From an uncultured Candidatus Saccharibacteria bacterium (GTDB lineage: Bacteria > Patescibacteriota > Minisyncoccia > Sungbacterales > JACQCQ01): a stretch of DNA of 64,000 nt. Below the pieces are notes generated by a model that did no database searches, had not been told where the DNA came from, and was given only the letters and a program-made list of their open reading frames with translations. Shown here one piece after another: positions 18,843 through 62,816 of the stretch (within the stretch, counting starts at the first letter, position 1; every line of letters begins with the position of its first letter). The stretch lies in assembly GCA_964494945.1 (NCBI GenBank), contig CAZBTX010000001.1:3088-67087 (forward strand), in the 5' to 3' direction. A program made the position numbers and the translations under genes.

Positions 18843-19020
18843 TTCAAAAATCAAAATGGAAAATGACGAGTAGAACGACTAATTAACCTAATTTCTAATT
18901 ATTCTAATCAAATCCCAATGTCTAATGACGCAATGATTTAAAATAATAATTAATGAGTCGTTGGACATTCAGGCATTAGACATTGATTAGATTAATTAGA
19001 ATAATTAGATATTCATATGG
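18843..19020. repeat. AT-rich intergenic palindromic element of the CTAAT-motif family
   Basis: Left arm CTAATTAACCTAATTTCTAATTATTCTAATCAAATCCCAATGTCTAATGACG. Right arm CATTAGACATTGATTAGATTAATTAGAATAATTAGATATTC is its approximate reverse complement. Confidence 0.55.
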
Positions 19021-19564: not shown

Positions 19565-19585
19565 TTGCATTTTGCATTTGTAACT

Positions 19586-32369: not shown

Positions 32370-32490
32370 GCCGTCAGGCTGTAGGCAAAAATCAAAATGA
32401 CAAATCAAAATTCAAAAATTAAACACTCTATAATTATCCCGAAGGGATACCTTAATTTTGACTTTTGCATTTTGCCTTTTAAATTTATTG
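32370..32490. repeat. AT-rich imperfect hairpin element ending at the murG start codon, with a TCCCGAAGGGA apical hairpin; related to 19470-19564
   Basis: Shares AATCAAAATGACAAATCAAAATTCAAAAAT and TTTTGACTTTTGCATTTTGC with the pyrG-upstream element. Confidence 0.5.
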
Positions 32491-33631: not shown

Positions 33632-35113
33632 ATGAACGTTCGTGTTCGCATTGCGCCTTCTCCCACCGGACATCTGCATGTCGGCACCGCGCGTTCGGCG
33701 CTTTTTAATTATTTGTTCGCCAAAAAAGCAGGCGGCGAATTTATTTTGCGCATTGAAGACACCGACCGCGAGCGGTCAAAAAAAGAATACGAAGAGGGGA
33801 TTATTGAATCACTAAAGTGGCTTGGCCTTGATTGGGATGAGGGGCCGATCAGACAAAGTGAACGAGTTGATATTTATAAGAAATATATTTCTCAATTGCT
33901 AAAAAATGGTAAGGCATTTGCCTGTTTTTGCGAAAAAAATATTATCGAAAAAGAATTAAAGGACGACCAGCATTATATGCATTATTGTCCATCGAGGAAT
34001 GATGCTTTTAATTCAAATGAAATAAGGCCATTCGTTATTGCCTATAAGAACGACGACTTTGGAGAGCAGCAAAAACAACTTAAACACGAATTACAAAATA
34101 CAAAAAAGATTGGTGGTTTTAGGACTGTGAGTTTACCAACTGAAACAAAAACGTGGATAGAATTTAGCGATGAAATTAGGGGGGAGTTCAGTTTTCCTAA
34201 AGAAATATTTGGTGATTTTATCATCGCAAAAAGTCTCGAGGAGCCACTCTATAACTTTGCGGCAGTTGTTGATGATTATGAGATGAAAATATCGGATGTG
34301 ATCAGAGGAGAGGACCACCTCCCTAATACACCTAAACAGATTCTTCTTTATGGGGCACTTGGTTGGCAACCACCAAAGTTTGCCCATCTTCCGCTTCTTT
34401 TGGGAACTGATCGTTCAAAGCTTTCTAAACGTCACGGAGCGACTTCGGTGATTGAGTTTCGGAAAGAAGGATATTTACCCGAAGCTTTAATCAATTTCCT
34501 GGCGTTACTCGGCTGGAACCCCGGGGGCGAGCAAGAAATCTTCTCACTTAATGAGTTAATTGAAAAATTCTCGCTTGATAAAGTAAATAAGTCGGGTGCT
34601 ATTTTTGACATAGCGAAGCTTGATTGGATGAACGGCGAATATATCCACAAGATGGCTGTCTCTAAACTTGCGGATTTGCTTTCGCCGTTCATGGATAATG
34701 CCGGACTGGATGCCGCTAAGATGCCGAAAGAAAAATTAGAAAAAATAGTGGCTTTGGAGCAGCCCCGCCTTAAGCGCCTTGCCGAGATAGGGGAGAAGGT
34801 AAAATATTTTTTCCGCCAGCCGGAATATGATAAAGAGTTGCTGCGGTGGAAGAATATGAGCGATGAGGAAGTTGCTGACTGTCTTAAAACGGCGGAAAAA
34901 ATAATTTCCAATTTCCAATTTCCAATTTCCAAAGCGGTGATTGAAAAGGCCTTTTTACATGAGATAGGGGAGGGGGACAAAGGGAGAGTTCTTTGGCCGC
35001 TGCGGGTGGCGTTAACCGGTCTTCGATCTTCACCCGGCCCTTTTGATATCATTGAGATCCTGGGACGGGACGAGTCAATTTCGCGCCTAAGGCGCGCCAT
35101 AAATTTGCTCTGA
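33632..35113 (+). CDS. gltX: Glutamate--tRNA ligase
   Basis: HLHVGTARSALFN (HIGH) and KLSKRHG (KMSKS) class I motifs. Confidence 0.9.
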   Translation: MNVRVRIAPSPTGHLHVGTARSALFNYLFAKKAGGEFILRIEDTDRERSKKEYEEGIIESLKWLGLDWDEGPIRQSERVDIYKKYISQLLKNGKAFACFCEKNIIEKELKDDQHYMHYCPSRNDAFNSNEIRPFVIAYKNDDFGEQQKQLKHELQNTKKIGGFRTVSLPTETKTWIEFSDEIRGEFSFPKEIFGDFIIAKSLEEPLYNFAAVVDDYEMKISDVIRGEDHLPNTPKQILLYGALGWQPPKFAHLPLLLGTDRSKLSKRHGATSVIEFRKEGYLPEALINFLALLGWNPGGEQEIFSLNELIEKFSLDKVNKSGAIFDIAKLDWMNGEYIHKMAVSKLADLLSPFMDNAGLDAAKMPKEKLEKIVALEQPRLKRLAEIGEKVKYFFRQPEYDKELLRWKNMSDEEVADCLKTAEKIISNFQFPISKAVIEKAFLHEIGEGDKGRVLWPLRVALTGLRSSPGPFDIIEILGRDESISRLRRAINLL

Positions 35114-40549: not shown

Positions 40550-43500
40550 TTAACTGCTTGGCGTGGAACTGGCGGTGGCAGTGGTGGATGAGGCGGTGTC
40601 GGTGGTTGAGGCAGCGTCAGCTCCGACGCTAGCGTTCGGAGCCCCGACCCCTTCGGGCGTCAGGGTTGTTGTCGGCGTTGTGATTGTGGTGTCGGTTGAG
40701 TCGGCAGTCGGCGTGGTGCTGGCCGTGTCTGTCGGCGTGAATGAAGCTATGGGGCTTACGTCCGAGATCGGCGGCAAGCCGTCGCAATTTCCCGAAATGG
40801 TGCTGACGGCGCCACGCTCTATGAATACGCAATATGCCGCTTTGGTGGCGCGATCAAAAAGCGTAATGCCGGTCGGGGCTTCAGTAGAGCCGACGGTTAA
40901 GTGGTCGGTTTCGATATACTTCATCGTCATGCGCCCCGTCTCGTCAATTTTCCAAAGGCCGTTTTGCGAGACGATTTGTCCGACTCCCAAGAGGGCATTG
41001 CCGTTTAAGTTCACATCCCCGTAGAAGTTGACATTCACCTTGCCCGTAGTCTGATCCACCGACCAGCCATTAGTCGCTATTCCCTGTTCGCTATTCGCTG
41101 CTAGCTGGGTCGTTCCTTCATCAAGCTTTGAGTAGCCGAGGTTGATGAAAACCAGGATTTTGCCGGTTTTCACCGTCTGGCCGTCGGGAAGTCCGACTTC
41201 GGCGGTGTTTGAAGTCGGACTTCCAACAGTTGAGTCGTCAAAGTTTTCTAGAGCTATACCCACTGTCACGCCGGATACGGTAGCTTTCATGCCTACTCCT
41301 GCAAGCGAGGAGGAAGTTATCCTGTCGCCTATCTTGATGGGGCCGGATTCGGTGGAAACCTTAACGGGAACGCGGCCGTTCAAAGCAACGGGAAGTTTGT
41401 TTATGGTTTCGGGAAGATTCTTTCCTGCCGAGGTAAAATCAGAGTAATTATTTGAGGTGATGCCAAGGAGGTTTGATTGATAAGCGGTAGTGGAACGCTT
41501 AAGTTCGGAAACATATCCCAAGTGAGGCAGGGTGGAACTTGCGCTTCCCTTCTCGTCGCTGGCATAGGTTTCAATCATTTTACTGCCATCTCCCAAAGCC
41601 ACGATCTCGCCGTATTCAATTCCTTGTTCAACCGGATAAAGCTCGGCATAGTCGGCTCCACCGGAAGTGCAGTCGCCGATGCCGCGCAACGCGTCTGCGG
41701 AAAGTTCAGCGCCGCTATAACACATAGCAACGTTAGAAATTTCGTCATCTAGCATGGCCTGCACGGGGTTGCTAGCTGCATTGGCGTCTACTATAAGCCC
41801 ATTAGTCCAGGTGATGGCGTCACCCGCAGTTCCTGATGGCGCCGTGCGAAGAGTTATATCGGCGCCGCTATAATAGATTTGTTGCGCGGGATTTGTAATC
41901 TTATATCTCCAACTTCCGTCGTAGTATATATTTGCGCCAAGTCCCCCATCAACGCTACCAATATTCGTGAGCGAAAGCGTTCTTCCCGCCGAACTATTCC
42001 CAATAACGAGCGCTGGTATAGTCCATCCTGGATCTGAAGGTACGACACCGAGAAATATTTGCTGGTCGGCATTCGGGAGTTGCAAGGTGGGGCCGGCAGT
42101 GTTCACTGTGAGAATGCCATCAGTATCTATTGTCATCCGATAAGCCGCCGCAGTTATATCTCGAATCTGAAATAACCCTGTATCTTGTACACCTACAATC
42201 CAATCCCTACTTGCTTTATTGGAAAATCGTAAACCTACGCTGTTGGTTGCGTCCTGATTCCGTATATTTAATTGAGGCGTACTCGAGTCCAAACTCGACA
42301 TGCCAGAACCAGAAACAGCCAGCACTCCAAACGGACTCGTCGTCCCGATGCCGACGTTGCCGCTTCCATCAATCCTCATCTTTTCTGCCATAGTTGACGC
42401 TGAATTTTGAGTGAAAAACGTAAGTGATCCTGCCGTGCCTCCGACGGCCTCTCGCATCAATCCTATTAGAGCTGCTGGATTACCATTACCAGCGGCGCGA
42501 AACTTAATTTTAGAGCCAGCCCCGACTACGTTAGAGTCGGACAAAAGGTTCAATTCCGTATTATTGTCGTCATAGTATGAAGCCCCGGTCGCTATAGTCG
42601 AGCTTGAAATGTTGAATGTTGCACTCCCCGTATCGCCAGCCGCACTAGTTCCAACCAAAATCCTGCCGTCGCTTCTTATTCGCATACGCTCAGTCGAAAT
42701 ATTAGCGTTATCGGCACGTGTAAAAAACGCAAGGATTCCACCTCGTTTGGTTGCCGTTGTCCCGCTGAGATTAGAGCTGATTCGCGCCACCTCTTTGGAG
42801 AAAGTTCCTCCAGACTGGGCATCTGCGTGAAAAGAAATAACTCCAACATTATCCGCGTCAGCATCAGCGGTAAGGTTGCCGAGCCGCAGGATTCCGTAAT
42901 CGTTCGTAGCATCAAGCACACTAAAGAACGAATTTCCTGAACCATAAGGACTGGTGGTAATTAGCGATGCATCAGCAGCATCACCACTTCCAAAAATACC
43001 GTTACCCACAACCGATAACTTGGAGCCCGGACTCGTCGTCCCGATGCCGACGTTGCCGTTGGGAAAGTTAACGCTCGAAATCGTCGCCCCACTGCGCTTC
43101 ACATTCAGCCAAGAATTGGCCGTGGCAAGGGAATCATTTAATGCTCGAAAATCAAATTCGCCCGCCGTCAGCATCCCTGGCCCAAAATCCCAAATCTTGT
43201 TGTCAGCGGTGGCATTGGTGTTATTCATCACAATGCCGGTGGTCGCCCCCTGGATTTCCAACTTGCCATCATGCCCCGGCCCGATACGCGCCGTGCCTCC
43301 GATCTGCACATCCGCTGTACCAGAACCAGCCGCTTTCAAGATATGCAAGCCAGAGGCCGGATTCGTTGTCCCGATGCCGACGTTGCCGGATGTTTGCTGA
43401 ACCACGAATTGATTTGTCCCCACAGTAAAGCCGCCCGTAGCTATTGTAGAAGTAGCGGTAGTAGAAGTGGCAGAGAAGTTGTTGGAAACAATTTGGCCGG

Positions 43501-46500
43501 TGACTGAAAGCATGGCATAAGGAGATGTCGTCCCGATGCCGACGTTGGCTCCGCTTCCGAGGATCAACGAGTTGGATTGAGTTACCACGGCGTTGTAACC
43601 GATGGCCGTCGCGTTGGTGAGGTTGGCGGAGGTAAGACCGAAGGTACTATCGTCTTGAGCGCCAATAAACGTATTGGTTGACCCCGTGGTATTGGCACGC
43701 CCGGCGTTTCTGCCGACCGCTACGTTATTGCCGGCGGTGGTATTTAGCAACGAGTATATGCCAATCGTAGTGTTCTGGATGCCGCTGATGTTATTAAACA
43801 GACTATCAAAACCAACAGCCGTATTTTCACTGCCACCGGTGTTTAGCTTCATCGCCTCAAATCCTACGGCGGTATTAGAACTATTAGTATTGCTCGTTAG
43901 TGCCGAGCTCCCTAAAGCCGTGTTATTACTGCCGGAAACATTGGCGGCAAGGGCTCTGTCGCCAACAGCCGTGTTGTCGTCCCCCGTAGTGTTTAAGGTA
44001 AGGGCGTTATAGCCAACGGCGGTGAGCGAGGTGGCCGCAGTGGTGAGCGAGGCAAGGGCATTAGTGCCAACCGCAGTATCTCTCTGGGAGTCCGTGTCCA
44101 TGGTCAAGTTCCCCGCGCTGACCCCAACAAAAGTGTTGTTAGTGCCGAAAGTATGCAGAAGCGTATTTGCAGCCGACTTGATAATGCCTACGGTGGCTGT
44201 GGTGGCCGGTAGCGTGATCGTTCCCGTTGCCGTGATATTAGCAACCGAGGTGATATTTCCGGAAATCAAGGCATTCCCCTGCACCGAGAGGGTTGTTGCC
44301 GGACTCGTCGTCCCGATGCCGACGTTGCCTGAGTTTTTTACTATGAACCTGTTCCCGTCGGTCCCATCATCACTGGATAGCATGAAAAGATCGGATGCTC
44401 CTGCTGATGCACTGACCTCCAAAAGCGCATCTGGATTTATGTCTCCGATGCCGATGTTGCCGCCCTCAAGAACAGAGAACACCTCGTCGTTCGTGCCTGC
44501 ATAAAATCTTGCCCTGTCGGCATCAAATCTTAACGTTGCCACTGTGGTGCCCCCGCCTTCAATACTCCACCCCGTACTTTGAGATATGAAACTGAGGCGT
44601 ATTTGCGCATCAGCGTTTGCTGAATCAAATGCTGTACAACTGGAAACGCCGCAATCAACACTCACTCTGCCACCGACAATATCCAGTTTTTGACTCGGAT
44701 TCGCCGTCCCAATTCCCACATTCCCGGAATTCAGAACCGTGAAGAGCGTCGTGGTCGCTGAAGCCGTTGACGAAGCGATGGTCAAGAGAGGTTGAGTGGA
44801 ATCGGTCGCAAGATTCGCGATGGAAAGTTTTGAATAAGGCGAGGTGGTGCCAATGCCGACGTTGCCAGAGTTTACAATCCGCATCGCCTCGGTGGCTCCG
44901 TTGTTGCCGACTAAGAATTTAATGAAGTCAGTGGTGCCAACGCCCGAGGTGGACTGTAAAGATAGTGAAGAGCCAACTGCGCTCCCGCCGATCAAAAGTG
45001 GGTCAATGATGGAGGTGCCGAAGTAGCCAGTTTTAATGAGATTGGTGGATTTTCCGATATCGGAGCCATTGTTGGCCTCCGGATAAAATCCGGATGAGTT
45101 GTCAATGTTCCAACGAGTGCTGCCCATGTTTTCAGATAACTGGAGAATTCCGCCACCCGCGCCGATGTTTAAGTTCTGCGTGCCTGGGCTTCCCGCTCTC
45201 TCAATGCCCAGAAAGTGACTGCCGTCGCTGTTTCTGGAGTTTATGCTGAACCGAACGTAGTTGGAGGCATTGGTGTAGGTTGAATATATATTCAGGCCCT
45301 GTTCTTGCGTGCCGTTTTGGAGCGCAACGCCTTTGACTAAGTTTCCTCCAGAGCTTGAGAATTGTTCCTTTTGCAAAAGCACATCCGCGGTTCCCGCGCC
45401 GTTGTCCCAGCCGATGATACTTGAGGAAGCCACGGTGAGCGCTTGGCTTGGATTAGAAATCCTAATCCCCACATTCCCGGAAGCATCCACAATGAAGGAG
45501 GTGGCGGTTGAGGAGCCAATGGCGAACGCGGTCTGGGTGGTTCCGGCCGGGGACTGAATGGAGAGCGTGGCAAAGGGCGAAGAAGTGCCAATACCCACTC
45601 TCCCGAAAGGCGAGGATGAAGTGTCCAAAGAAAGCAGAGGATTGGCGGCTGTGGTGCTTGTCGCCAGAGACCAGGCATTGACCGTCAGGTTGGGAATGGT
45701 GCTTGTCGCCCGATTGTTGTAGACAATGTTCCCGGAGTTGATGGAGAAAAGGTCTCCGATGGCATCACCCACATATAAAGAACCCTCCACCAGCAAAGAG
45801 GAGGCGGAAGTGGAGGCCACGGTGACTGAACCGGCCGAGGTCAGGGAATTGACATACACATCCCCCTCGGCATCCACCAGGAACTTGGTAGAGCCATTGA
45901 CCGCCAGACCCAGGAGATTGGTATCGGAGACGGCTGATGCGGGATTGATATACAGGGAAGAGTTGGACACCGCCGCATTGGCCACTCCCGTGGCCCAGGC
46001 GGGAAAGGTGTGGGGCGTTACGGGGACATAGGTAGCCACCACCTGGCCGGAACTGGTGGTGGTGGCCGAGACGGATAGAGTTCCGTTATTAGCCGAGAAC
46101 ACCCCGCCCACCGAGAGCGCCCCGTGGATCTGGGTGTCTCCCGATACTTCAAAGTTGCCGGAGGTGGTGGTGGAGACACCCACCCCCAAGCCCCCGGTGA
46201 GATATGTATGGCCGGATACGGAAAGAAGCTGGGAGGGTGAAGAAGTGCCGATGCCCACTTTATTCCCCCCAAAATCAACCACCAGAGTATCGGTGTCTAT
46301 GGTCAGTCCTCCCGCCATGGTGGAAGTGGAGGTGGTATCGGTCAGGGTCAATTTAGAGGCGGTAACTCCTGCTGTTACCGTGAGCGACCCCGTGCTCACC
46401 ATAAGATCACCGGTTCTCACGGTGGCGCCGTTATAAATGTCCAGGGAGTCCAGCTTGTCTATTCTCTGCGAGACGGTCACCATCTGGAGGGAAGAGCCGG

Positions 46501-47617
46501 CCACGCGGGAAGTATTATTCAAGTCCCCCCGCACGGTGAAGAGGTCATGGGAGAGGGAGGCCAGTTCCACTCTGATTTTGTTGTTTTCCTGCTGAAAGAG
46601 TTGAGAGAGCTCTTGCTTAAGACCGGCGGTGTCCGTTATGACCAGTTGTCTTTCTATGATGGTGGAGGGTTGCTCTTGCTTTTCGGCAGATGCGGCTGGT
46701 TTCTCCGGCTCTTGGCCGTTTAGCGTAAATTCAACTGTTCCCGATGGCAGGGTCAGCGGCTCGCGAATTCTAGAGCCCAAAAGCAAATTGGAGAAGAAAG
46801 GCCGGATGTTCTTGAAGAGTCCCGCGATGTTGCCTTCGCTTTGGATGATACGCGCGACATTCTGCCCGGTGTCTTGGGTGGCGGTGAGGCCGGATTGATA
46901 GAAATTCAGGGAGGCCTCGGTTAGAGAATTTCCCAGCGAATCAATTAGGTTGCTTTTTAAAGCGGCGGGATTTTTAAAATAGCCGCCAAGGCCGGTTAGA
47001 ATGAGATTTGCCGTATCCGGCGTGCCCGAAGTGATATCGGAGATGCTTAGCCGATTTTGGGTTTCAGCCGGTAAAATTTGGCGATGGGATGTTGAAACAG
47101 CTAAAGAACGCAAGTGCTCCCCGGCGTCTTTTGCCAATTGAGCCAGGTCTGCTCGGGCATTGAACCCAATCCCGATAGCCGCCGCCAGCAGAATTAGCGC
47201 GCCAACCAGCTTAAAATTTGATACGTATCTTAATCTATCTAAATATTCAGTTAAATCGTATCTTTTTTCACTTTTAAGAATATGTTCTTTAATTCTATCG
47301 TCATTAAGTATTGCCAGCAGGTTCTCCTTTTTAACAGCCAACAGCGTTTCCGAAGGTCTGTAATATTTTTTAGCTTCTCTTCCGTCACGAGCAGTTAAAA
47401 TTTGGCTCCCAGCCGGTTCCGCGGGCTCAATATAGGCCCCTTTTGCCTTTTTCTTACGCCCGGAGAGGTAATCAAGTAGATCTTTTTCCGCAACGAACCA
47501 GTCGCGACCAACTTTCACTCCCCTTAACGATTTGCGGTTGATAAGAACTCTTAAATAATCCTGGTGAACACCGGAAAATTTTGCCGCCGCTTTGAGTCCG
47601 ATCAATTTTTGCTCCAT
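40550..47617 (-). CDS. Giant 2355-aa surface protein: an N-terminal excisionase/MerR-like HTH, one TM helix, then about 2200 aa of Gly/Thr/Ser/Asn-rich beta-repeat sequence with at least 11 GNVGIGTTSP-type repeats
   Basis: One uninterrupted ORF. N-terminal LKAAAKFSGVHQDYLRVLINRKSLRGVKVGRDWFV. TM segment LVGALILLAAAIGIGF. Recurrent GNVGIGTTSPxxxLxVxG motif. C-terminal Thr/Ser/Ala-rich tail. Confidence 0.75.
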   Translation of the reverse strand: MEQKLIGLKAAAKFSGVHQDYLRVLINRKSLRGVKVGRDWFVAEKDLLDYLSGRKKKAKGAYIEPAEPAGSQILTARDGREAKKYYRPSETLLAVKKENLLAILNDDRIKEHILKSEKRYDLTEYLDRLRYVSNFKLVGALILLAAAIGIGFNARADLAQLAKDAGEHLRSLAVSTSHRQILPAETQNRLSISDITSGTPDTANLILTGLGGYFKNPAALKSNLIDSLGNSLTEASLNFYQSGLTATQDTGQNVARIIQSEGNIAGLFKNIRPFFSNLLLGSRIREPLTLPSGTVEFTLNGQEPEKPAASAEKQEQPSTIIERQLVITDTAGLKQELSQLFQQENNKIRVELASLSHDLFTVRGDLNNTSRVAGSSLQMVTVSQRIDKLDSLDIYNGATVRTGDLMVSTGSLTVTAGVTASKLTLTDTTSTSTMAGGLTIDTDTLVVDFGGNKVGIGTSSPSQLLSVSGHTYLTGGLGVGVSTTTSGNFEVSGDTQIHGALSVGGVFSANNGTLSVSATTTSSGQVVATYVPVTPHTFPAWATGVANAAVSNSSLYINPASAVSDTNLLGLAVNGSTKFLVDAEGDVYVNSLTSAGSVTVASTSASSLLVEGSLYVGDAIGDLFSINSGNIVYNNRATSTIPNLTVNAWSLATSTTAANPLLSLDTSSSPFGRVGIGTSSPFATLSIQSPAGTTQTAFAIGSSTATSFIVDASGNVGIRISNPSQALTVASSSIIGWDNGAGTADVLLQKEQFSSSGGNLVKGVALQNGTQEQGLNIYSTYTNASNYVRFSINSRNSDGSHFLGIERAGSPGTQNLNIGAGGGILQLSENMGSTRWNIDNSSGFYPEANNGSDIGKSTNLIKTGYFGTSIIDPLLIGGSAVGSSLSLQSTSGVGTTDFIKFLVGNNGATEAMRIVNSGNVGIGTTSPYSKLSIANLATDSTQPLLTIASSTASATTTLFTVLNSGNVGIGTANPSQKLDIVGGRVSVDCGVSSCTAFDSANADAQIRLSFISQSTGWSIEGGGTTVATLRFDADRARFYAGTNDEVFSVLEGGNIGIGDINPDALLEVSASAGASDLFMLSSDDGTDGNRFIVKNSGNVGIGTTSPATTLSVQGNALISGNITSVANITATGTITLPATTATVGIIKSAANTLLHTFGTNNTFVGVSAGNLTMDTDSQRDTAVGTNALASLTTAATSLTAVGYNALTLNTTGDDNTAVGDRALAANVSGSNNTALGSSALTSNTNSSNTAVGFEAMKLNTGGSENTAVGFDSLFNNISGIQNTTIGIYSLLNTTAGNNVAVGRNAGRANTTGSTNTFIGAQDDSTFGLTSANLTNATAIGYNAVVTQSNSLILGSGANVGIGTTSPYAMLSVTGQIVSNNFSATSTTATSTIATGGFTVGTNQFVVQQTSGNVGIGTTNPASGLHILKAAGSGTADVQIGGTARIGPGHDGKLEIQGATTGIVMNNTNATADNKIWDFGPGMLTAGEFDFRALNDSLATANSWLNVKRSGATISSVNFPNGNVGIGTTSPGSKLSVVGNGIFGSGDAADASLITTSPYGSGNSFFSVLDATNDYGILRLGNLTADADADNVGVISFHADAQSGGTFSKEVARISSNLSGTTATKRGGILAFFTRADNANISTERMRIRSDGRILVGTSAAGDTGSATFNISSSTIATGASYYDDNNTELNLLSDSNVVGAGSKIKFRAAGNGNPAALIGLMREAVGGTAGSLTFFTQNSASTMAEKMRIDGSGNVGIGTTSPFGVLAVSGSGMSSLDSSTPQLNIRNQDATNSVGLRFSNKASRDWIVGVQDTGLFQIRDITAAAYRMTIDTDGILTVNTAGPTLQLPNADQQIFLGVVPSDPGWTIPALVIGNSSAGRTLSLTNIGSVDGGLGANIYYDGSWRYKITNPAQQIYYSGADITLRTAPSGTAGDAITWTNGLIVDANAASNPVQAMLDDEISNVAMCYSGAELSADALRGIGDCTSGGADYAELYPVEQGIEYGEIVALGDGSKMIETYASDEKGSASSTLPHLGYVSELKRSTTAYQSNLLGITSNNYSDFTSAGKNLPETINKLPVALNGRVPVKVSTESGPIKIGDRITSSSLAGVGMKATVSGVTVGIALENFDDSTVGSPTSNTAEVGLPDGQTVKTGKILVFINLGYSKLDEGTTQLAANSEQGIATNGWSVDQTTGKVNVNFYGDVNLNGNALLGVGQIVSQNGLWKIDETGRMTMKYIETDHLTVGSTEAPTGITLFDRATKAAYCVFIERGAVSTISGNCDGLPPISDVSPIASFTPTDTASTTPTADSTDTTITTPTTTLTPEGVGAPNASVGADAASTTDTASSTTATASSTPSS

Positions 47618-47954: not shown

Positions 47955-48545
47955 TTATCCTCTTAAACTGAAGAATTTTTTAGCCGCATTTTCCTCCGTG
48001 CCCAGGGACCTTACTTCAAGGCAGTTGACTCCCCCATCAAGGCCGAAAACCTCGCAAATGAATTCAATTTCATCTTCGCAGGGCAGGAAATGCGCGAAGA
48101 CACTTTTTTGGAGTTTATAAAAATTCATGTCATTTAATTTTTTGGACAGGGCGTCGCGCGCCTGTTTTTTATTTTCAGGAATATCAAACATCACTACGCG
48201 CCAGAGGCCGTCCCAGCGCGGTGTATTTTTTAATTTGAGATTCTCTAGATTATATTGGCGCAACCTTTTCTCTCCGGTTGCCGTTAGACGCAACAATGTT
48301 TTGTTGCCGGAATTTTCATGTTCCAAAAACTTTTGCCGGCGCAGGCGTTCAATCGCCACACGAATGCTGTTTTTTCGTTTTCTGCCAATGCCAATTTTTT
48401 CCAGCCGCGGGAGAAAAAGATCACTGATGGAAGCGTCTCTTCGCGAAGAAAACGCGGCGGGGCGGTCGCGCAAAATAGAAAGTATTTCTTTGGCGATAGT
48501 CCCCTTTTTTAAATTTTCCCCGCGCTCAACAGCGATTTTGGGCAT
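47955..48545 (-). CDS. PaaX-like architecture: N-terminal winged helix fused to a C-terminal Cas2/VapD-like ferredoxin-fold domain. Putative regulator, not CRISPR-associated.
   Basis: C-terminal WRVVMFDIPENKKQARDALSKKLNDMNFYKLQKSVFAHF matches the Cas2-like pattern (hhhh-FDI...R..L...G-F..LQ-SVF). The N-terminal 100 aa is basic and HTH-like. No cas1 or repeat array in the window. Confidence 0.4.
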   Translation of the reverse strand: MPKIAVERGENLKKGTIAKEILSILRDRPAAFSSRRDASISDLFLPRLEKIGIGRKRKNSIRVAIERLRRQKFLEHENSGNKTLLRLTATGEKRLRQYNLENLKLKNTPRWDGLWRVVMFDIPENKKQARDALSKKLNDMNFYKLQKSVFAHFLPCEDEIEFICEVFGLDGGVNCLEVRSLGTEENAAKKFFSLRG

Positions 48546-48651: not shown

Positions 48652-49758
48652 TTACAGTCCTTCCATTCTTAATTTTTCCATGAGTTCTCGGAGTTGTTTT
48701 GATATCCTGCGCGGTATTTCCACTTTGATTTCCACCAGTAGGTCCCCGTGCTGATAACCGCGGGCTTCCGGCACGCCCTTGCCTCTGACTCTTAAAATAT
48801 CTCCCGATTGGGTGCCTTCCGGGATTTTTAAATTAATTTCCCCTTCCAGTGTTTGAACGGCAACGGTACTCCCCAGTATGGCTTGCGATATTTTAACCGG
48901 TAGTTTCATAACAAGGTCATCCCCTTGCCGGCTGAAGACCCTATGCGGCGTGACTTTGAGCCGAATATAAAGGTCGCCCGGCGTTCCGGTCGGATCGGAT
49001 ATATCCCCCTTACCGGTCAATTTAATACTCTCATCCGGCCGTATGCCCTTAGGGATAATAAGCTCCAGCGTTTCTTCCTTTTTCTGTGCACCCTTACCGG
49101 AGCAGGTAGTGCATGGTTTTGACGGTATTTCTCCTTTACCGCGGCAGGCAGGGCAGGTTTCCACACGAGTTATTGAGCCGAGAAAAGTTCGCTCGTTATG
49201 CTGGATATTGCCTTTGCCGCCGCAGGTATTGCAGGTTATGGTCTTGGCCCCAGGTTCGCCCCCCATCCCCCCGCAATGAGTACAGCGTACAACCCGCCTT
49301 AGAGCTATGCTTTCTTTTCCACCCAGAATACTTTCCTCAAATGGTATGGTTAGCTCCACGACAATATCTTTACCACGCTTTTTCTTGGATCCACGGTTTG
49401 CACTAAAGCCAAACACACCCTCTAAAATGTCGCCTATATCAAAGTCAGTTGAACTGTTTTCTCCAAAGTCAAACTTAATGCCGCCAGTTTGTCCGTGCGC
49501 CTTGAAAATATCTCCCCAATCAAACCCGCCGCCAAATCCTCCCCCGGAATTAAACGCTTGGCCGAAGTTATCATATTGTTGACGCTTTTTTTCATCACCC
49601 AATACTTGGTAGGCCTCATTGATCTCTTTGAATTTTGCGTCGTCTCCCCCGCCTTTGTCGGGATGATACTGATGTGCCAGTTTGCGGTAGGCCTTCTTGA
49701 TCTCTTCTTGAGAGGCGTTTTTGGGTATTCCCAGAACTGAATAAAAATCTTTTGGCAT
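48652..49758 (-). CDS. dnaJ: Chaperone DnaJ. The six-frame ORF extends to 49800 through the flanking CTAAT element; the real start is MPKDFYSVLGI at 49758.
   Basis: J-domain with HPD, G/F region, four CxxCxGxG zinc-finger repeats and a C-terminal domain. Confidence 0.95.
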   Translation of the reverse strand: MPKDFYSVLGIPKNASQEEIKKAYRKLAHQYHPDKGGGDDAKFKEINEAYQVLGDEKKRQQYDNFGQAFNSGGGFGGGFDWGDIFKAHGQTGGIKFDFGENSSTDFDIGDILEGVFGFSANRGSKKKRGKDIVVELTIPFEESILGGKESIALRRVVRCTHCGGMGGEPGAKTITCNTCGGKGNIQHNERTFLGSITRVETCPACRGKGEIPSKPCTTCSGKGAQKKEETLELIIPKGIRPDESIKLTGKGDISDPTGTPGDLYIRLKVTPHRVFSRQGDDLVMKLPVKISQAILGSTVAVQTLEGEINLKIPEGTQSGDILRVRGKGVPEARGYQHGDLLVEIKVEIPRRISKQLRELMEKLRMEGL

Positions 49759-49759
49759 G

Positions 49760-49820
49760 AAGTTAGACGAATGTCTAATTAACCTAATTATTCTAATCAA
49801 TACTCAATGTTTGAATGTCT
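49760..49820. repeat. CTAAT-family element AGTTAGACGAATGTCTAATTAACCTAATTATTCTAATCAA...TGTCTAATGAC, left flank of the IVS-protein gene
   Basis: Shares CTAATTAACCTAATT(TCTAATT)ATTCTAATCAA with 18843-19020 and, inverted, with 50200-50243. Confidence 0.55.
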
Positions 49821-50199
49821 AATGACCAATTTTCTTCTTCCTAAGGTTTCTGGTAATACTGTTAAATATCAAATTCAATTCCTTTGCTTCTTGCCAAAGT
49901 TTTCTAGCTTCTTCTCTCGGTTCGGGAACAGCAATTGCTGTCATTCGTAGCCAATGCTTTGTTTCTCTCGCTTCTTTTTTACAAATGCCAATTTTGTGTT
50001 TGAAGTCCCGGCCCGATTCGGCGTCATCGGCTTCGCAATAATTAGCTCCCACACTTGTCCCAGATTTTACTAACTGGTTAATGATCGGCAGAGTTATCGG
50101 ATTCATTGGTAATTTCTTGGCAAATTTAATGATATCTTCACCAAATTTAGCCGTTCTTTCCTCAAGATCATATTTATTTTTGACCGTATCATTGGTCAT
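49819..50199 (-). CDS. Four-helix-bundle protein of the 23S-rRNA-intervening-sequence-protein family
   Basis: DIIKFAKKLP...LVKSGTSVGANYCEADDAESGRDFKHKIGICKKEARETKHWL is the TIGR02436-type pattern. Confidence 0.7.
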   Translation of the reverse strand: MTNDTVKNKYDLEERTAKFGEDIIKFAKKLPMNPITLPIINQLVKSGTSVGANYCEADDAESGRDFKHKIGICKKEARETKHWLRMTAIAVPEPREEARKLWQEAKELNLIFNSITRNLRKKKIGH

Positions 50200-50243
50200 T
50201 GGGGCTTGATTAGGATAATTAGAAATTAGGTTAATTAGTCATT
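50200..50243. repeat. CTAAT-family element in inverted orientation (GGATAATTAGAAATTAGGTTAATTAG), right flank of the IVS-protein gene
   Basis: Reverse complement AAAATGACTAATTAACCTAATTTCTAATTATCC matches the left-flank element. Confidence 0.55.
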
Positions 50244-51167
50244 TTACAAGGAGTACTTAGTGGCAGGAACACTGGAGGCCGATTCTTGGATGACGCCAGT
50301 TTTTCTCCCAAGCGTAAAAAGTAGAGAAGCTATCAGCAATGTCAGCCAATATATGGGAAGAAATATTCCTTTAACGGTCAAAAATACGGCAATGGTATAA
50401 ATCAGCGGCATATATGCTTCATAGGGCTTGGTAAATTCAGCCGATTTGCGGCCTATAAGGTCATAGAAAACGTCTCCCAGGCGTTCCCCGCCGCCCAAAT
50501 GAGTTCCGAGTTGCTGGGAAAGATTATTTCTGGCCTCGGCCAAAAATGAATTTATTTTTGCCGGAGGAAGCGATTTTATGTCTATACCCGGCCCTATTTC
50601 TGGCTTGGTAATATCTAACAAAAGCTCATTTACTGTCCTATCCTTATCCAATGAGATACCCGCGGAAATTACACCAGCAAGTCCCTTAGCGATGTATGGG
50701 AATGAAATGTCAAATACGGAACGCGGCAGAATGACCACATTTTCTTTTTGCGCGCTGGTGGTGTAGTAAAATAACGCCGCTAAGATAGCCATGCCGGTAA
50801 ATAGCGACGGCAGGCCGGAGCGCAGTATTCTTCTTACTCCAAAAAGGAAGGTAAAATCGCGCTGTTTGGATATCTCCCACCATCCAAGCGCCGCGGATAT
50901 AAAGCCCGCGAATACCCAAGCGTATGTCCACTGGTTCAACGGCAGAAAATAAAATGAGGCCGCGAAGGGAATTCCAAGGCCAAGCCATTTCCAATAAAGT
51001 GAGTTCATCAAAATAGCTCCCAAGCCGTAACAAACGGCGAAGACCAGGATCAGTCCAAGAGTACTTAGCGAGAAAAGTCCTTGCTTATTGCCCGCCCAGA
51101 GTGCGCCCAAGCCCAATAACGCCGTTAATGCCGCAAGTCCCGCTTCCTTATAATAGGTGCTTATCAT
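50244..51167 (-). CDS. Polytopic membrane protein of unknown function, overlapping the dnaK stop by 4 bp
   Basis: About 8 hydrophobic helices. No family recognised. Confidence 0.5.
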
Positions 51168-53050
51168 TTTTTATCATTATCGTTTTCTTTCGGCTTCTCT
51201 TCAAACTCCGCTTCTTTGGTACCCGATGGGGTATCTTTATTTTCTTGATTGGCTTTATATAAGATTTCCCCAATTTTTTGGAGTGCCATTGATAGAGATT
51301 GCGAGCTTTTTTCTATCTCCGATTTTCCGTCGGTTTCTTTAGCTTTTTTTAACTCGGCAATTTTGCTCTCAATATCGGCTTTTACTTCGGCTGGAACTTT
51401 ATCGCCAGCATCACGGAGCGCTTTTTCGGAGGTGTAGATAAGCGCGTCTGCCGCGTTTTTTACTTCAATTTCTTCTTTCTTTTGCTTATCTTCAGCCGCG
51501 TGCAACTCCGCGTCTTTCTTCATTTTTTCTATTTCTTCCTTGGAAAGCGAAGATGAGGCCTCAATTCTTACCGATTGCTCTTTAGAAGTCGCTTTATCTT
51601 TGGCCTTGACCGAAAGAATGCCGTTGGCGTCAATGTCAAACGTTACTTCCACTTGCGGCATACCGCGGGGTGAAGGCGGAATACCGTCCAAAACGAACCG
51701 CGCCAGGGTCTTGTTATCATGCGCCATTTCGCGCTCGCCCTGTAAAACATGAATTTCCACCTGCGTTTGGTTGTCGGCGGCGGTTGAAAAGATCTGTGAT
51801 TTGGCGGTCGGGACCGTGGTGTTCCTTTCTATGATCTTGGTGAACACACCACCCAGCGTTTCGATGCCGAGCGACAGGGGCGTTACGTCAAGCAGTAAAA
51901 TGTCTTTTACGTCGCCCTGCATGATACCGGCCTGAATGGCGGCGCCCATCGCCACAACCTCATCGGGGTTTATGGTTTTGTTCGGTTCTTTGCCGAAGAG
52001 GTCTTTAACGGCGTTTTGTATGGCCGGCATTCTGGTCTGCCCCCCGACCATGATTATTTCGTTGATGGTTGATAATTGGAATCCGGCAGCTGATACGGCG
52101 CGCTTAGTAATTTCAATTGAGCGGTCAATGTCGGGCTTGACCAAGGCCTCAAGTGTGGCGCGCGAGAATTTCATAGCCAGGTGTTTAGGCCCGGAAGCGT
52201 CAGAAGTGATGAAGGGAATATTTATCTCGGTCTGTAACGTGGAAGAAAGCTCGTGCTTGGCTTTTTCGGCAGATTCTTTCAGCCGCTGCAGTGCCAAGAT
52301 GTCTTTGGAAATATCAATGCCCTGGTCTTTCTTAAATTCAGTGATTATCCAATTTATTATCTTTTGGTCAAAATCATCACCGCCCAAATGCGTGTCGCCG
52401 TCGGTGGATTTCACTTCAATCGTATCGTCGCCGATCTCAAGCACCGAGATGTCAAATGTTCCTCCGCCGAAATCGTAAACTACGATCTTTTCATCTTTCT
52501 TTTTATTCAAGCCATAAGCCAGGGCCGCGGCCGTGGGCTCATTAATGATGCGTTTGACCGCAAATCCCGCGATCTCTCCGGCCGCTTGCGTGGCCTTTCT
52601 TTGGGAATCGTCAAAATAAGCCGGCACCGTAATAACGGCTTCGGTGATCTTTTGTCCCAGGCGCTCTTCAGTGTCGTGTTTTATTTTTTGAAGGATCATG
52701 GCGGAAATCTCTTCGGGTCTAACCCATTTATCCCCCATCTTGGCCTCAACTCCGCCATTAGCCGATTGACGAAGTTCATAGGGCAGAAGTTTTAGGTCTT
52801 TTTGCACTTCTGCATCAGCAAACTTGCGGCCAATCAGGCGCTTAATGGAATAGAATGTGTTTTGCGGATTGGTAACCGCCTGGCGTTTGGCCAAAAGCCC
52901 GACCAATCTATCCCCCGCCTTAGAGAGCGCCACCACTGATGGCGTGGTGCGATTGCCCTCTTTGTTCTCAATGATTTTGGGCTCACTCGCTTCTACGACA
53001 GCTACAGCTGAATTGGTGGTACCGAGGTCTATGCCGATGATTTTAGACAT
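51164..53050 (-). CDS. dnaK: Chaperone DnaK (Hsp70)
   Basis: [18 protein letters not shown] and VGGQTRMP signatures. Confidence 0.97.
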
Positions 53051-53150
53051 AATATCAATTAATTTTTAATTTCTAATTACTAATTTCTAATCAAACTTAA
53101 ATATCTAATGACCAACTTAAAGATTTAAAAATTTGGGAATTAATCATTGA
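53051..53150. repeat. CTAAT-family AT-rich palindromic intergenic element between dnaK and grpE
   Basis: TTTCTAATCAAACTTAAATATCTAATGACC and an inverted GGACATT..GATTAGGAATTAGGGATTAGATATTGG partner. Confidence 0.5.
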
Positions 53151-53702
53151 TTAGGAATTAGGGATTAGATATTGGACATTTTTATAGACTTTTACCTTGG
53201 CGGGACGCAGGACACGCCCGCCGCGCATGTACCCTCTTTGCATTTCTTCCGCGATGATTCCCTGCTCGTGGTCTTTAGATTCAATTTCATCAATGGCTTC
53301 ATGCAGTTCTGGATCAAATTTAGTGCCGGCAGTTTTTAATGGTTCTACTCCCAGACGCCGCAGGATCTCCAGGCACTGCGACTGGATTAAGTAAAATCCT
53401 TTTCCCGCTTCGTTGGATAGATGTTTTTTATGCTCTTCTCCCAGGGCTAGGTCAAAACTGTCCAAGACCGAAAGAAATTCCAGAATTAATTCGTCTTCCA
53501 GCCGGTCCTTCCAGATTCGTAACCGTTTTTCATCATCTTTTCTGGAATTAATTATATCCGCCTTTGCTCTTTGCCACCCGTCCAGATACTCTTTCTTGTC
53601 ATTTTCGCAGATAGCCAATTTCTCTTTTAATTGTTTTATCTTAGCGACAGGATCGGGGTGAGCGGATTCACCATATTCTTCATTAATTTCCAAGTCATCC
53701 AT
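53151..53702 (-). CDS. grpE: Nucleotide exchange factor GrpE
   Basis: Coiled-coil N-terminus and a conserved C-terminal beta domain (RRLGVEPL...KVKVYK-like). Confidence 0.9.
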   Translation of the reverse strand: MDDLEINEEYGESAHPDPVAKIKQLKEKLAICENDKKEYLDGWQRAKADIINSRKDDEKRLRIWKDRLEDELILEFLSVLDSFDLALGEEHKKHLSNEAGKGFYLIQSQCLEILRRLGVEPLKTAGTKFDPELHEAIDEIESKDHEQGIIAEEMQRGYMRGGRVLRPAKVKVYKNVQYLIPNS

Positions 53703-53705
53703 GTT

Positions 53706-54431
53706 TTAATTCTCTTGCATTATCTCATCTAACACACTAAGAAGTGAAAGTCCTCTGTCGTAATGCATACGTTTTGAACCGACTAGGGCTATAACGCCCG
53801 TGTCTTTGCCGCGCTTCAAGGTTTTTATGATCATACTGTAGGGTCGCGCCTCGCGGATGGGATTTTCGCGGCCAATAAAAACTCGCGGCGCACTAAAATC
53901 CTCTCCTTTTATGAGAATTCGCATATCCCTGTCAATGGAATCCATCATTGTTCCGAATTGGTTGCGAATATCGTTATCGGAAAATTCTGGGTCAGCCAGT
54001 ATTTGGCCAAATCCGCTTTTATAGAACGGCTCCATGTCTTCGGCTAAGCTGCCCCCTATAACTAAAGATTGCGTTAGACGAGCAAAGATTTCCGTGGAAA
54101 TTCTGAAGAAGTCGTCTGAGTCATCCAGATGGGCATCCAGCGCTTCGTGGAGCGAACGCAAGTCGTCCCTATTGGGTTTCATGGGGACGGCTGACTCTGC
54201 CGCGTACCAACGGTATCCATTATCAGTGGGAACGCGACCGGCGGAAGTATGCGGTTGAGAAAGGAAGCCCCGCCGCGAGAGGTCCGAAAGCTCGTTCCTA
54301 ATAGTAGCGGGGCTGTAGGGCAGGCGGTAGCGTTTTCTAAGGTCGTCAGAAGACACTGGATTCCCGGTTCTGATATATTCGGCAACGGTGGCCGAAAGCA
54401 GGTCTTTTTGGCGTTCAGTGAGAGAATTCAT
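53706..54431 (-). CDS. hrcA: Heat-inducible transcription repressor HrcA (short form)
   Basis: LTERQKDLLSATVAEYIRTGNPVSSDDL is the N-terminal winged helix. Position upstream of grpE-dnaK. Confidence 0.8.
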   Translation of the reverse strand: MNSLTERQKDLLSATVAEYIRTGNPVSSDDLRKRYRLPYSPATIRNELSDLSRRGFLSQPHTSAGRVPTDNGYRWYAAESAVPMKPNRDDLRSLHEALDAHLDDSDDFFRISTEIFARLTQSLVIGGSLAEDMEPFYKSGFGQILADPEFSDNDIRNQFGTMMDSIDRDMRILIKGEDFSAPRVFIGRENPIREARPYSMIIKTLKRGKDTGVIALVGSKRMHYDRGLSLLSVLDEIMQEN

Positions 54432-54548
54432 GCAAGAAAAAGTTTAGCATAGTTAGCAATCTGCGGTCAAGAGTGCTAATCCCTCGGTCAGTTTAGGGCT
54501 AAAATGAAGAGCCCACACGGTGAGCTGTGTGTGGCTCCCCATGTGGGC

Positions 54549-57439: not shown

Positions 57440-58873
57440 TTGGCCTTAGGGTCTATTCTGTTTTATAGTCAAGAAACAAAAATGGCGTCTCAAAATCCAA
57501 AATCTATCCCCTCTCCCATATCCTCCAATATTCAGGAGGGGCGCATGCCGCCGCAATCCGTTGACGCGGAAATGTCGGTGCTGGGTTCTTTGATGCTGGA
57601 CCAGGAGGCCATTTACCGCGTTTCCGATATTCTTTCGGTGAGAGATTTTTATAAACCGGGGCATCAGGTCATTTATGAGGCGATGCTGGACCTTTTCAAA
57701 TCCCGAGAGCCGCTGGATATTGTTTCGGTCTCGTCTCGGCTCCGCGAAAAGAATGTTTTGGAGGATATCGGCGGGTCAGCTTATCTTACGAGTTTGGTGA
57801 ATCTTGTGCCTACGGCTTCGCACGTCCAGCATTACGCCAAAATCGTGCATAAAAAGCGCGTGCTGCGGGATCTCATTGACGCTTCATACCACATCGCCGA
57901 GCTTGGTTATAAGGAAGAAGAAGGCGTGGAAACATTACTGGACGAAGCCGAGCAGAGAATCTTCGCCATTTCACAGACCTCGCTTCAGCAAGAATTTTTC
58001 GCGGTCAAAGACGCGCTGGATGACGCCTGGGAGCGCATTGACAGAATTCACAAGGAGGGCTCGGCGCTTAGGGGTGTCACCACCGGATTTAATGATCTGG
58101 ATAATTTGATCGGCGGTTTGCAAAAATCGGATCTGATAATTCTCGCTTCGCGTCCGAGTTTAGGCAAAACATCCTTAGCGTTGGATATCGCAAGAAACGC
58201 CGCGTTAAAAGCCGGGGCTTCGGTGGGAATTTTCAGTTTGGAAATGTCCAGGGACCAGCTGGTTGATCGTCTGATAGCCGCCCAGTCCCATGTGGATCTA
58301 TGGAAATTGCGCACGGGGCGGCTTTCGGCCGAAGGCGATGACAATGATTTCGTAAAAATTCGCGACGCCATGGAAGAGCTTTCCCGGGTGCCTATTTTTA
58401 TTGACGACGCCGCTATGCCAACGGTGATGCAAATAAGGGCTATGGCAAGACGCTTGCAGGCGGAGCACGGCTTGAGTTTAGTGGTAGTTGATTACCTGCA
58501 GCTTATTAAAGGCGAAGGCAATTCGGATAATCGCGTGCAAGAGGTAAGCGAGATATCCCGTTCGTTGAAAGCCATGGCTAAAGAACTTAACGTGCCGGTA
58601 TTGGCACTCTCACAACTTTCCCGCGCCGTAGAGATGCGCTCCTCCGCCATTCCTAAATTATCGGACCTTCGCGAGTCAGGTTCATTGGAACAGGACGCGG
58701 ACCTTGTGGTGTTCATCTATCGCGAGGATAAAAACAAAGAAAATTCAGAACGCAAGAATATTGCCGAGCTCCGGATAGAAAAACACAGGAACGGACCCAC
58801 CGGCATAGTTGAACTTTATTTCAATCCCGAACAAACTTCCTTCCGCTCCATCACCAAGCATTATGATTACTAA
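57440..58873 (+). CDS. dnaB: Replicative DNA helicase DnaB
   Basis: N-terminal DnaB domain (VDAEMSVLGSLMLD). Walker A GSRPSLGKTSLAL and RecA-like motifs. Confidence 0.9.
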   Translation: MALGSILFYSQETKMASQNPKSIPSPISSNIQEGRMPPQSVDAEMSVLGSLMLDQEAIYRVSDILSVRDFYKPGHQVIYEAMLDLFKSREPLDIVSVSSRLREKNVLEDIGGSAYLTSLVNLVPTASHVQHYAKIVHKKRVLRDLIDASYHIAELGYKEEEGVETLLDEAEQRIFAISQTSLQQEFFAVKDALDDAWERIDRIHKEGSALRGVTTGFNDLDNLIGGLQKSDLIILASRPSLGKTSLALDIARNAALKAGASVGIFSLEMSRDQLVDRLIAAQSHVDLWKLRTGRLSAEGDDNDFVKIRDAMEELSRVPIFIDDAAMPTVMQIRAMARRLQAEHGLSLVVVDYLQLIKGEGNSDNRVQEVSEISRSLKAMAKELNVPVLALSQLSRAVEMRSSAIPKLSDLRESGSLEQDADLVVFIYREDKNKENSERKNIAELRIEKHRNGPTGIVELYFNPEQTSFRSITKHYDY

Positions 58874-58994
58874 ATTCCTAATTACTAATTTCTAATACCT
58901 AATCAATGTCCAATCTTCAATGCTTAATCTTTCTTCTTCCCGCTTTTGTCATTAGTCATTAGGATTTGATTAGAAATTAGTCATTAGAAATTAA
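58874..58994. repeat. CTAAT-family AT-rich palindromic intergenic element between dnaB and recR
   Basis: TTCTAATACCTAATCAATGTCCAAT and an inverted CATTAGTCATTAGGATTTGATTAGAAATTAG partner. Confidence 0.5.
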
Positions 58995-62624: not shown

Positions 62625-62816
62625 GGTTCTAAATTTCTAATTCCCAATATCTAATTTCTAATCAAATCAAAATGCCCAATGACCAATTTGAAAATTTGAG
62701 CATTAGTCATTGATTGGTGATGGCGAATTGGACATTAGACATTTCATGGCGTTGCTGTTATTACTATTATACCAGCGTCTAGAAATTAGTAATGGCGAAC
62801 TGGAAATTTTTCTGTC
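62625..62816. repeat. CTAAT-family AT-rich palindromic intergenic element between the PGM/PMM gene and ychF
   Basis: TTTCTAATCAAATCAAAATGCCCAATGACC ... CATTAGTCATTGATTGG ... GGACATTAGACATTTC with inverted-repeat organisation. Confidence 0.5.

Follow-up and report, generated by a model that had tools for sequence, protein, structure and literature searches.

The locus described here raises the question of why a gene of the S23p (23S rRNA intervening sequence, IVS) protein family should lie between inverted repeats inside a heat-shock operon. The gene encodes a 126-amino-acid (aa) four-helix-bundle (4HB) protein and was found in a 64,000-nucleotide (nt) stretch of contig CAZBTX010000001.1 from an uncultured Candidatus Saccharibacteria bacterium of the GTDB lineage Sungbacterales (the whole stretch is referred to as the window). 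The original prediction placed the gene in the four-helix-bundle IVS family and within the hrcA-grpE-dnaK-dnaJ operon, with a membrane-protein gene on its other side, and regarded it together with its inverted flanks as a cassette that had invaded the operon. Family and location were both confirmed: the protein scores above the curated cut-offs of PF05635 (50.4 bits; cut-off 33.8), its only Pfam match, and of TIGR02436 (71.5 bits; cut-off 24), and the gene order on the minus strand is hrcA, grpE, dnaK, a 307-aa membrane-protein open reading frame (ORF), the 126-aa ORF and dnaJ. The gene and its flanks have, almost certainly, the anatomy of an ORF-bearing IVS, located in a spacer between two protein genes. 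The best overall explanation, to which we assign a probability of roughly 55%, is that this IVS-like cassette is transcribed by read-through and that its two arms pair in the transcript, looping out the ORF.

The cassette measures about 480 bp. Its arms are composed of tandem CTAATT(N or NNN) units with a period of 7 or 9 nt, three to four per arm and unequal in number between the two; the upstream arm starts 5 nt past the stop codon of the membrane-protein gene, and the downstream arm ends approximately 11 nt ahead of the true dnaJ start codon (Table 1). The prediction that the same motif of about 30 bp stands in opposite orientations on both sides holds for an exact 15-mer, CTAATTAACCTAATT, present at 49775-49789 (+) and 50224-50238 (-), but not for the longer CTAATTAACCTAATT[TC]TAATTAT, which is not identical in the two arms. 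A third exact copy of the 15-mer occurs in the window at 18879, and with up to three mismatches allowed there are 9 matches compared to 2.2 expected, a number that none of 100 shuffles reached. A repeat search returned an inverted repeat of 20 nt (95%; 49770-49789/50224-50243) as well as overlapping 26-nt arms. The first codons of the 4HB gene, ATGACCAAT, and its last codons, ATTGGTCATTAG, together form a perfect 10-bp inverted repeat (AATGACCAAT/ATTGGTCATT). In the minimum free energy fold of the whole 496-nt sense RNA the arms are paired with each other (z = -2.75), and none of 100 shuffled sequences folded as well.

The same arrangement was found around homologous genes. More than 8000 homologues exist, the best of them 73-83% identical and from many Patescibacteria lineages; an identical protein is encoded in the same context on a metagenome-assembled genome of Candidatus Sungbacteria (GCA_016181625.1). 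From a scan of one genome per species, 80 loci were retrieved out of more than 500 matches, and arms were counted around 79 independent homologues (67-83% identical) from other Patescibacteria. At least two CTAAT upstream combined with at least two ATTAG downstream were present in 67 of the 79, with overall totals of 230 CTAAT versus 5 ATTAG upstream and 12 CTAAT versus 245 ATTAG downstream. The unit of this family is CTAATT followed either by T or by three variable bases (GAC, AAC, ATT), with approximately four units per arm on each side, and the mean energy of the arm-arm duplex is -38 kcal/mol versus -19 kcal/mol for shuffled arms (p = 4e-15). Three proteins of a candidate phyla radiation (CPR) subfamily (L073, L082 and L084; 68-77% identical to the query) are associated with non-CTAAT units. 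As the same arms thus recur in unrelated gene contexts (type IV secretion system pilins, type IV pilus genes and others), gene and inverted flanks do behave as a cassette.

The position of the cassettes relative to their neighbours is equally constrained. The upstream neighbour is co-directional in 67 of 68 cassettes, compared to a baseline of 81% (p = 1e-5), while the strand of the downstream neighbour is at baseline. The upstream stop codon lies a median of 6 nt ahead of the first unit and the next start codon a median of 14 nt beyond the last one; the cassette therefore occupies the entire spacer, and in seven cassettes a TAA within a CTAAT doubles as the stop codon of the upstream gene. 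Several CPR loci (L066, L018, L023 and L048) contain two 4HB cassettes 1-4 kb apart. In L066 (2092-3606) a single 221-aa gene lies between the pair. The second copy has diverged in L018, L023 and L048 (40-62% identity), and in L018 and L023 it is built on other units (ATCCCAA, ATCCAAA).

Across cassettes, identity at codon positions 1, 2 and 3 is 0.73, 0.80 and 0.44, respectively, and the two copies in the L066 genome are 91% and 94% identical at positions 1 and 2 and 44% identical at position 3. The GC content of the cassette coding sequence tracks that of the host (r = 0.85). These values indicate strong purifying selection, and hence a functional protein, and they identify the cassettes as long-term residents rather than recent arrivals. 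As the CTAATT units persist where synonymous sites are randomised, the arms must be either selected or continually homogenised.

That the heat-shock operon once lacked the cassette is suggested by its relatives, in which dnaJ follows either dnaK directly or a membrane-protein ORF. Genomes with DnaJ proteins 38-52% identical mostly show dnaK and then dnaJ, 10-100 nt apart and with no 4HB gene; in L111 and L122 the order is dnaK, membrane ORF, dnaJ with short spacers and no cassette; and in L097 a homologue of the 307-aa membrane protein (27% identical) lies directly upstream of dnaJ, ending 7 nt before it, again with no cassette. The 307-aa protein itself matched no Pfam or NCBIfam family. A metagenome scan with DnaJ gave nothing above 47% identity, so that the empty site is deduced from distant genomes only. 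The predicted invasion of the operon is thus supported by relatives without the cassette, but saturated synonymous sites and host-like GC content speak against its being recent.

Apart from the motif copies in the two short spacers beside the 4HB gene, the window contains four gene-less CTAAT...ATTAG hairpins of 100-140 nt, which are relatives of the cassette without the ORF. Their inner parts keep the sequence CCCAATG(A/T)C(C/T)AAT, which in the cassette contains the 4HB start codon. Had the motif been present in every spacer, the bracketing of the 4HB gene would have lost its meaning; these hairpins occupy 4 of the approximately 28 spacers of at least 50 nt, and the motif is therefore neither unique nor ubiquitous. 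In about 1.1 Mb of fetched DNA, the window and its four hairpins included, we counted 24 clear cases, some of which retain an ATGAC(C/T)AA start remnant. Cassette arms and gene-less hairpins have more 11-mers in common within a genome (0.27) than between genomes (0.13; p = 6e-4), and in L037 the cassette and a gene-less hairpin have nearly the same 40-nt right arm; these findings indicate that the elements of a genome have a common origin or undergo gene conversion. Rfam assigned no family to the hairpins at the gathering score; relaxing the threshold to E <= 1 added nothing beyond chance matches to AU-rich miRNA hairpins. In relatives, too, the heat-shock operons contain gene-less tandem-repeat hairpins, namely before dnaK in L098 and both after grpE and between dnaK and dnaJ in L101.

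The arms have consequences for the annotation of CPR genomes. As predicted, the 14-aa extension of the dnaJ ORF (MIRIIRLIRHSSNF, from a TTG at 49800) is read from within the arm and is spurious; the rplI ORF has a parallel spurious extension derived from the hairpin at 18879-19008, and in grpE an arm can provide the stop codon. The last nine codons and the stop of grpE (…NVQYLIPNS*; 53151-53180) are read from the arm of the grpE/dnaK hairpin; GrpE of relatives ends …RPAKVKV(x)K. The hairpins may in addition flag RNA processing sites within operons.

Table 1. Coordinates of the cassette, its host operon and related hairpins in the window.
Feature	Position	Strand	Remarks
CIRCE (HrcA operator)	54453..54479		only one in the window; overlaps the sole good promoter-like site ahead of hrcA
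hrcA	54431..53706	-	host operon
grpE	53702..53151	-	host operon
dnaK	53050..51164	-	host operon
hrcA-grpE-dnaK portion of host operon	51164..54431	-	
307-aa membrane-protein gene	51167..50244	-	between dnaK and cassette
5' (upstream) arm	50200..50243	-	CTAATTAAC-CTAATTT-CTAATTATC-CTAATCAAGCCCCA; reaches the ATG of the 4HB gene
126-aa 4HB gene	49819..50199	-	S23p / 23S-rRNA-IVS protein family
3' (downstream) arm	49763..49818	-	reverse complement of CTAATT units (…TTGATTAGAATAATTAGGTTAATTAGACATT)
dnaJ	49758..48652	-	true start ATG 49758
Repeat unit as RNA			CUAAUUNNN; four-unit array = (CUAAUUNNN)4
Gene-less hairpin, S41 peptidase/rplI spacer	18874..19012		units 18879-19008; exact 15-mer CTAATTAACCTAATT; fold z = -6.45
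Gene-less hairpin, grpE/dnaK spacer of the same operon	53066..53180		units 53073-53168; fold z ~ -2.9
Gene-less hairpin, spacer between co-directional genes	58868..58993		units 58878-58987; fold z ~ -2.9; ends 1 nt before downstream ATG
Degenerate gene-less member, spacer between divergent genes	62627..62760		fold z -0.7 and -1.6

Homologues from other phyla share the layout with different repeat units. Of 11 homologues from Cyanobacteria, Chloroflexota or Bacteroidota, 7 are enclosed by inverted arrays of other heptamers. The units found on plasmids of Cyanobacteria and Chloroflexota are (AATTCGT)4, (AATTCGC)4, (AATTCAA)4, GTCGGAG/GTCGGAA, ATCCCCA plus ATCGTAA, and GATGAAG, in each case with the reverse complement downstream. 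Unrelated heptamers such as AATTCGT and GTCGGAG surround proteins that are 70-76% identical; a sequence-specific pairing of 4HB protein and heptamer is therefore unsupported. What is kept is the symmetry and not the sequence, which speaks for a hairpin rather than for recognition of a specific sequence by the protein.

In L186 (plasmid pNsp_c of Nostoc sp. ATCC 53789; 949-1845) the arms are perfect, (CAATTCG)4 and (CGAATTG)4, and the flanking ORFs are a 76-aa fragment annotated as 'DNA cytosine methyltransferase' and a 92-aa hypothetical ORF; this cassette may split a gene. In L178, L181, L182, L187 and L188, all outside the CPR and on cyanobacterial or Chloroflexota plasmids, the cassettes lie between putative defence-operon genes as judged from product names, the pairs being helicase/DNA methylase (three cases), csx2/cas1 and DUF1156/Swt1-HEPN. 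In L188 the gene has a complete hairpin of approximately 100 nt on either side, one being a direct repeat of the other. A PADLOC search for membership in a defence system gave no match for the 4HB protein of the window, and a search for carriage by phages found none of its relatives on viral contigs.

With a single CIRCE and a single good promoter-like site, both ahead of hrcA, the cassette probably belongs to a single transcription unit under HrcA control. The CIRCE overlaps a TTGACC-18-TAAACT promoter-like site (54441-54479) whose -10 hexamer stops 9 nt short of the ATG of hrcA, suggesting a leaderless or very short-leader mRNA. A role of the arms as promoters was discarded, as promoter-like sites were no more frequent than expected (9 found, 8.8 expected) and the arms hold only weak 9/12 matches. 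An argument from Shine-Dalgarno (SD) sequences was likewise dropped because SD-like motifs precede only 9 of 51 genes in the window.

The mechanism that we propose starts from a cassette without a promoter of its own, whose transcription would depend on read-through from the CIRCE-controlled promoter of the operon. Once transcribed, the two arms would pair into a long, AU-rich and imperfect stem. This stem would loop out the 4HB ORF and bring the upstream stop codon to within approximately 20 nt of the dnaJ start codon, and the insertion would thereby be structurally "transparent" to the host RNA. The stem would also be a plausible substrate for RNase III, as are the stems of rRNA IVSs. We regard the chances that the arms act as a functional RNA stem as evenly balanced, and cleavage by RNase III, which is proposed by analogy, as somewhat doubtful.

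Several results weigh against a paired RNA as the basis of the element. Arm duplexes of the sense and the antisense strand do not differ in stability (41 wins each; 4.5 versus 4.7 G-U pairs), so that nothing in the strand comparison singles out RNA over DNA. Within the CTAAT family the right arm of the same element pairs with its left arm no better than foreign right arms do (-31.0 versus -29.9 kcal/mol; p = 0.23); there is thus no element-specific covariation, and the complementarity is explained by the common motif. The hairpin at 62627-62760 folds no better than shuffled sequences and is a weak member of the family. A gene signature for RNase III was not found in the window, nor was any rRNA (Rfam detected two tRNAs only). 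There was no sign of recent mobility, synonymous sites being saturated even between two copies in one genome, and no target-site duplication was visible at the arm ends, nor was a recombinase found. As to the missing fine-scale covariation, the tandem design may account for it by allowing many registers to pair, and coarse covariation across phyla is clear in that both arms switch heptamer together.

The strand symmetry of pairing is what a feature of the DNA predicts. The arms could be the terminal inverted repeats of a non-autonomous transposon or cassette resembling miniature inverted-repeat transposable elements (MITEs), with the 4HB gene as passenger; a transposase or recombinase encoded at another locus would mobilise such an element in trans, any hairpin would act in single-stranded DNA, and the gene-less hairpins would be deletion derivatives. 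Terminal inverted repeats, small size, lack of a transposase and multiple copies are indeed MITE-type traits, and the occurrence of several gene-less copies per genome, the greater likeness of arms within than between genomes and the widely differing gene contexts fit this explanation as well. In Geobacter metallireducens, moreover, IS110-family elements target similar paired tandem-repeat sites (PMC2700814). Against it stand the lack of a target-site duplication and of any transposase or integrase within approximately 10 kb, where the neighbours are the heat-shock genes, a PaaX/Cas2-like gene and genes for CorA, CysS, DnaB and RecR. The copies are also ancient and host-like in composition, and the two arms differ in unit number. 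That co-orientation is near-absolute and that the spacer is filled exactly suggests selection at the level of expression, with which mobility as DNA is nonetheless compatible. We consider this explanation unlikely.

A second alternative dispenses with the stem and takes the arms as two arrays of binding sites, in which the CTAATT units are recognised by a multimeric regulator of the translation or stability of adjacent genes, either the putatively pentameric 4HB protein itself or another factor. The strict period of 7 or 9 nt, the presence of some four units in either arm, the conservation of the unit across lineages with randomised synonymous sites and the absence of arm covariation beyond the motif would all be expected of such arrays, and the homologous protein Avd, whose structure 8UB7 is among the fold matches, is a pentamer that binds RNA in the ribonucleoprotein of diversity-generating retroelements (DGRs). 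The complete switch of heptamer between 4HB proteins of 70-76% identity, to which L073, L082 and L084 with their non-CTAAT units can be added, speaks against it and makes it unlikely that the 4HB protein reads a base sequence. As single strands, moreover, the two arms present different motifs, CUAAUU and AAUUAG, and the presence of the same unit, inverted, in the two arms of every lineage is explained more simply by a stem. Binding arrays are judged improbable.

That the gene is an orphan DGR avd, or an ordinary small gene beside AT-rich spacers that resemble each other by chance, is suggested by the Avd-like fold and by the composition of the spacers, but is very improbable and effectively refuted by the neighbours, which include no reverse transcriptase or template/variable repeat, by a sequence and fold for which the S23p proteins 2RLD and 2GSC are nearer matches than Avd, by a motif count above all 100 shuffles and by the same arms around 67 of 79 homologues.

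The structural comparison underlying these statements was made with an AlphaFold2 monomer model (pLDDT 89.9), which shows four helices. Its best solved match in Foldseek is 2RLD (TM 0.76-0.87; rmsd 2.1), which is also the closest solved structure by sequence (hmmsearch, E 2e-15), and 2GSC matches too; both are pentamers of the S23p family. The next fold matches are to the DGR protein Avd (4DWL, 8UB7; TM ~0.65). A review of DGRs cites the Pfam family PF05635 (PMC10053308). Avd has the same four-helix-bundle fold and is a nucleic-acid-binding pentamer, whereas its sequence is only 13-16% identical and the cassette has no DGR components nearby. By analogy to the Avd pentamer on DGR RNA, the likeliest role of the 4HB protein would be to bind the structured nucleic acid of its own element.

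Among known systems, the IVS of Coxiella burnetii, with 428 nt, an S23p ORF in the loop and a 28-bp terminal stem cut by RNase III, offers a close comparison; it also has tandem heptamers (GACAGAT x3) just upstream of the ORF (PMC4990558). The ORF-bearing 23S rRNA IVSs of Leptospira, Coxiella burnetii and Brucella resemble the cassette in size (approximately 430-480 nt), in an S23p/PF05635 ORF within the loop and in terminal inverted repeats able to form a long stem. The likeness to Coxiella extends to the short tandem repeats immediately before the ORF start, CTAATT units taking the place of GACAGAT, and to the lack of an own promoter or strong ribosome-binding site, transcription occurring as part of a host RNA (PMC4990558), as is probable here. 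In other respects the two differ. The cassette lies between protein-coding genes and not in an rRNA helix, the location that defines IVSs; its arms are tandem arrays on both sides; strong purifying selection acts on its protein, in contrast to the decaying Coxiella ORF; and its gene-less relatives are scattered through ordinary intergenic spacers. Excision from the precursor by RNase III, with no religation, is characteristic of rRNA IVSs, whereas the stem of the cassette is a candidate substrate. PF05635 ORFs have also been described in 22 insertions in CPR 16S and 23S genes, mostly non-intron (PMC11270868). As to copies inside rRNA with the same arms, all 4HB loci fetched here were free of rRNA motifs.

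As short, multicopy inverted-repeat elements in operon spacers that form hairpins in transcripts, the cassettes are also similar to the Correia elements of Neisseria and to the enterobacterial ERIC and REP/BIME palindromic repeats; Correia elements are cut by RNase III. The cassette arms are tandem 7/9-nt units and not a unique palindrome as in such palindromic or MITE-like repeats, and no target-site duplication was seen. REPtrons, in which a gene for a REP-associated tyrosine transposase (RAYT) is flanked by inverted copies of a repeat dispersed through the genome, are alike in this respect, but the gene enclosed here encodes a four-helix bundle without a recognisable catalytic (HUH/Y1 or DDE) motif and not a Y1/HUH transposase. 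Integron gene cassettes carry a single 3' attC and depend on an integrase and attI, whereas here both sides have arms and no integrase is found among the neighbours.

A further group comprises intergenic arrays of short tandem repeats, among them the cyanobacterial STRR repeats, which are intergenic tandem heptamer arrays. TAACTGA arrays that closely precede start codons have been described in Beggiatoaceae, Cyanobacteria and Bacteroidetes (PMC4679880). In Geobacter metallireducens, gene-less paired inverted octa- and heptanucleotide arrays, catalogued as putative regulator sites, include pairs between operon genes such as nifD/nifK and proB/proA (PMC2700814). Common to these arrays and the cassette arms are two to six tandem units of 7-8 nt in spacers, often ending shortly before a start codon; the difference is that here, and on the cyanobacterial and Chloroflexota plasmids, the arrays bracket a 4HB gene. 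Within the literature searched, no paper linked such arrays to PF05635 genes. New relative to the original prediction are four further spacers of the window, including grpE/dnaK, that hold gene-less hairpins built from the same arms, the near-constant placement of the cassette after a co-directional gene with filling of the whole spacer, and the common layout with different heptamers of cyanobacterial and Chloroflexota homologues.

To our knowledge, the function of the IVS-encoded S23p protein and the origin of rRNA IVSs have been open since the early 1990s, and what tandem heptamer arrays do in the genomes of cyanobacteria and other organisms is a further long-standing question. A conserved protein, near-constant inverted arms, residence in operon spacers and gene-less relatives together offer one testable model that links these puzzles. 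Tentatively, and with the reservation that it is a less probable proposal than the one made for the cassette itself, non-DGR PF05635 4HB genes and inverted tandem-heptamer arrays could form one widespread, hitherto unrecognised class of hairpin-closed elements in transcribed spacers. The rRNA IVSs would then be copies that landed in rRNA, the STRR, TAACTGA and Geobacter arrays would be gene-less relatives, and the 4HB protein would be a trans-acting partner that binds, stabilises or propagates the hairpins.

Some further features of the window and of related operons were recorded. The grpE-dnaK spacer of L101 (450-1474) contains a small ORF, tRNA-like genes (by eye), a hairpin of TCCTAAA units and a palindrome of AACGAGTT units, and shows that much material accumulates in such operon spacers. 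Downstream of dnaJ, a minus-strand gene (47955-48545) encodes a 196-aa protein with a PaaX central/Cas2-like domain (PF20803, E 1.5e-18); weak Cas2 matches were obtained in Pfam and PADLOC, and no CRISPR array was noticed. It is followed by a minus-strand ORF of 2355 aa (40550-47617) that has an N-terminal helix-turn-helix-like segment and long repeats of low complexity rich in Gly, Ser and Thr; the 337-nt spacer ahead of it is 70% AT.

A second family of gene-less hairpins is present at 19469-19580 and 32380-32486, in which tandem heptamers of the TCAAAA(N) type, in 7.7 and 5.6 copies, stand opposite TTTTGC(A) arrays, with a small GC-rich stem at the apex (GCC-GAAG-GC; TCCC-GAAG-GGA). It looks like a bidirectional terminator of the A-tract/GC hairpin/T-tract type. 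Given the hairpins at 18879-19008 and 19469-19580, rplI is bracketed by one member of each family. Similar units, TGACAAA/TGTCAAA, flank the 4HB genes in the CPR genomes L073 and L082. Finally, a perfect (AATTTCC) x4.3 array at 34903-34932, with no inverted partner nearby, lies in frame within the ORF at 33632-35113, a putative glutamyl-tRNA synthetase gene, and encodes ISNFQFPIS.

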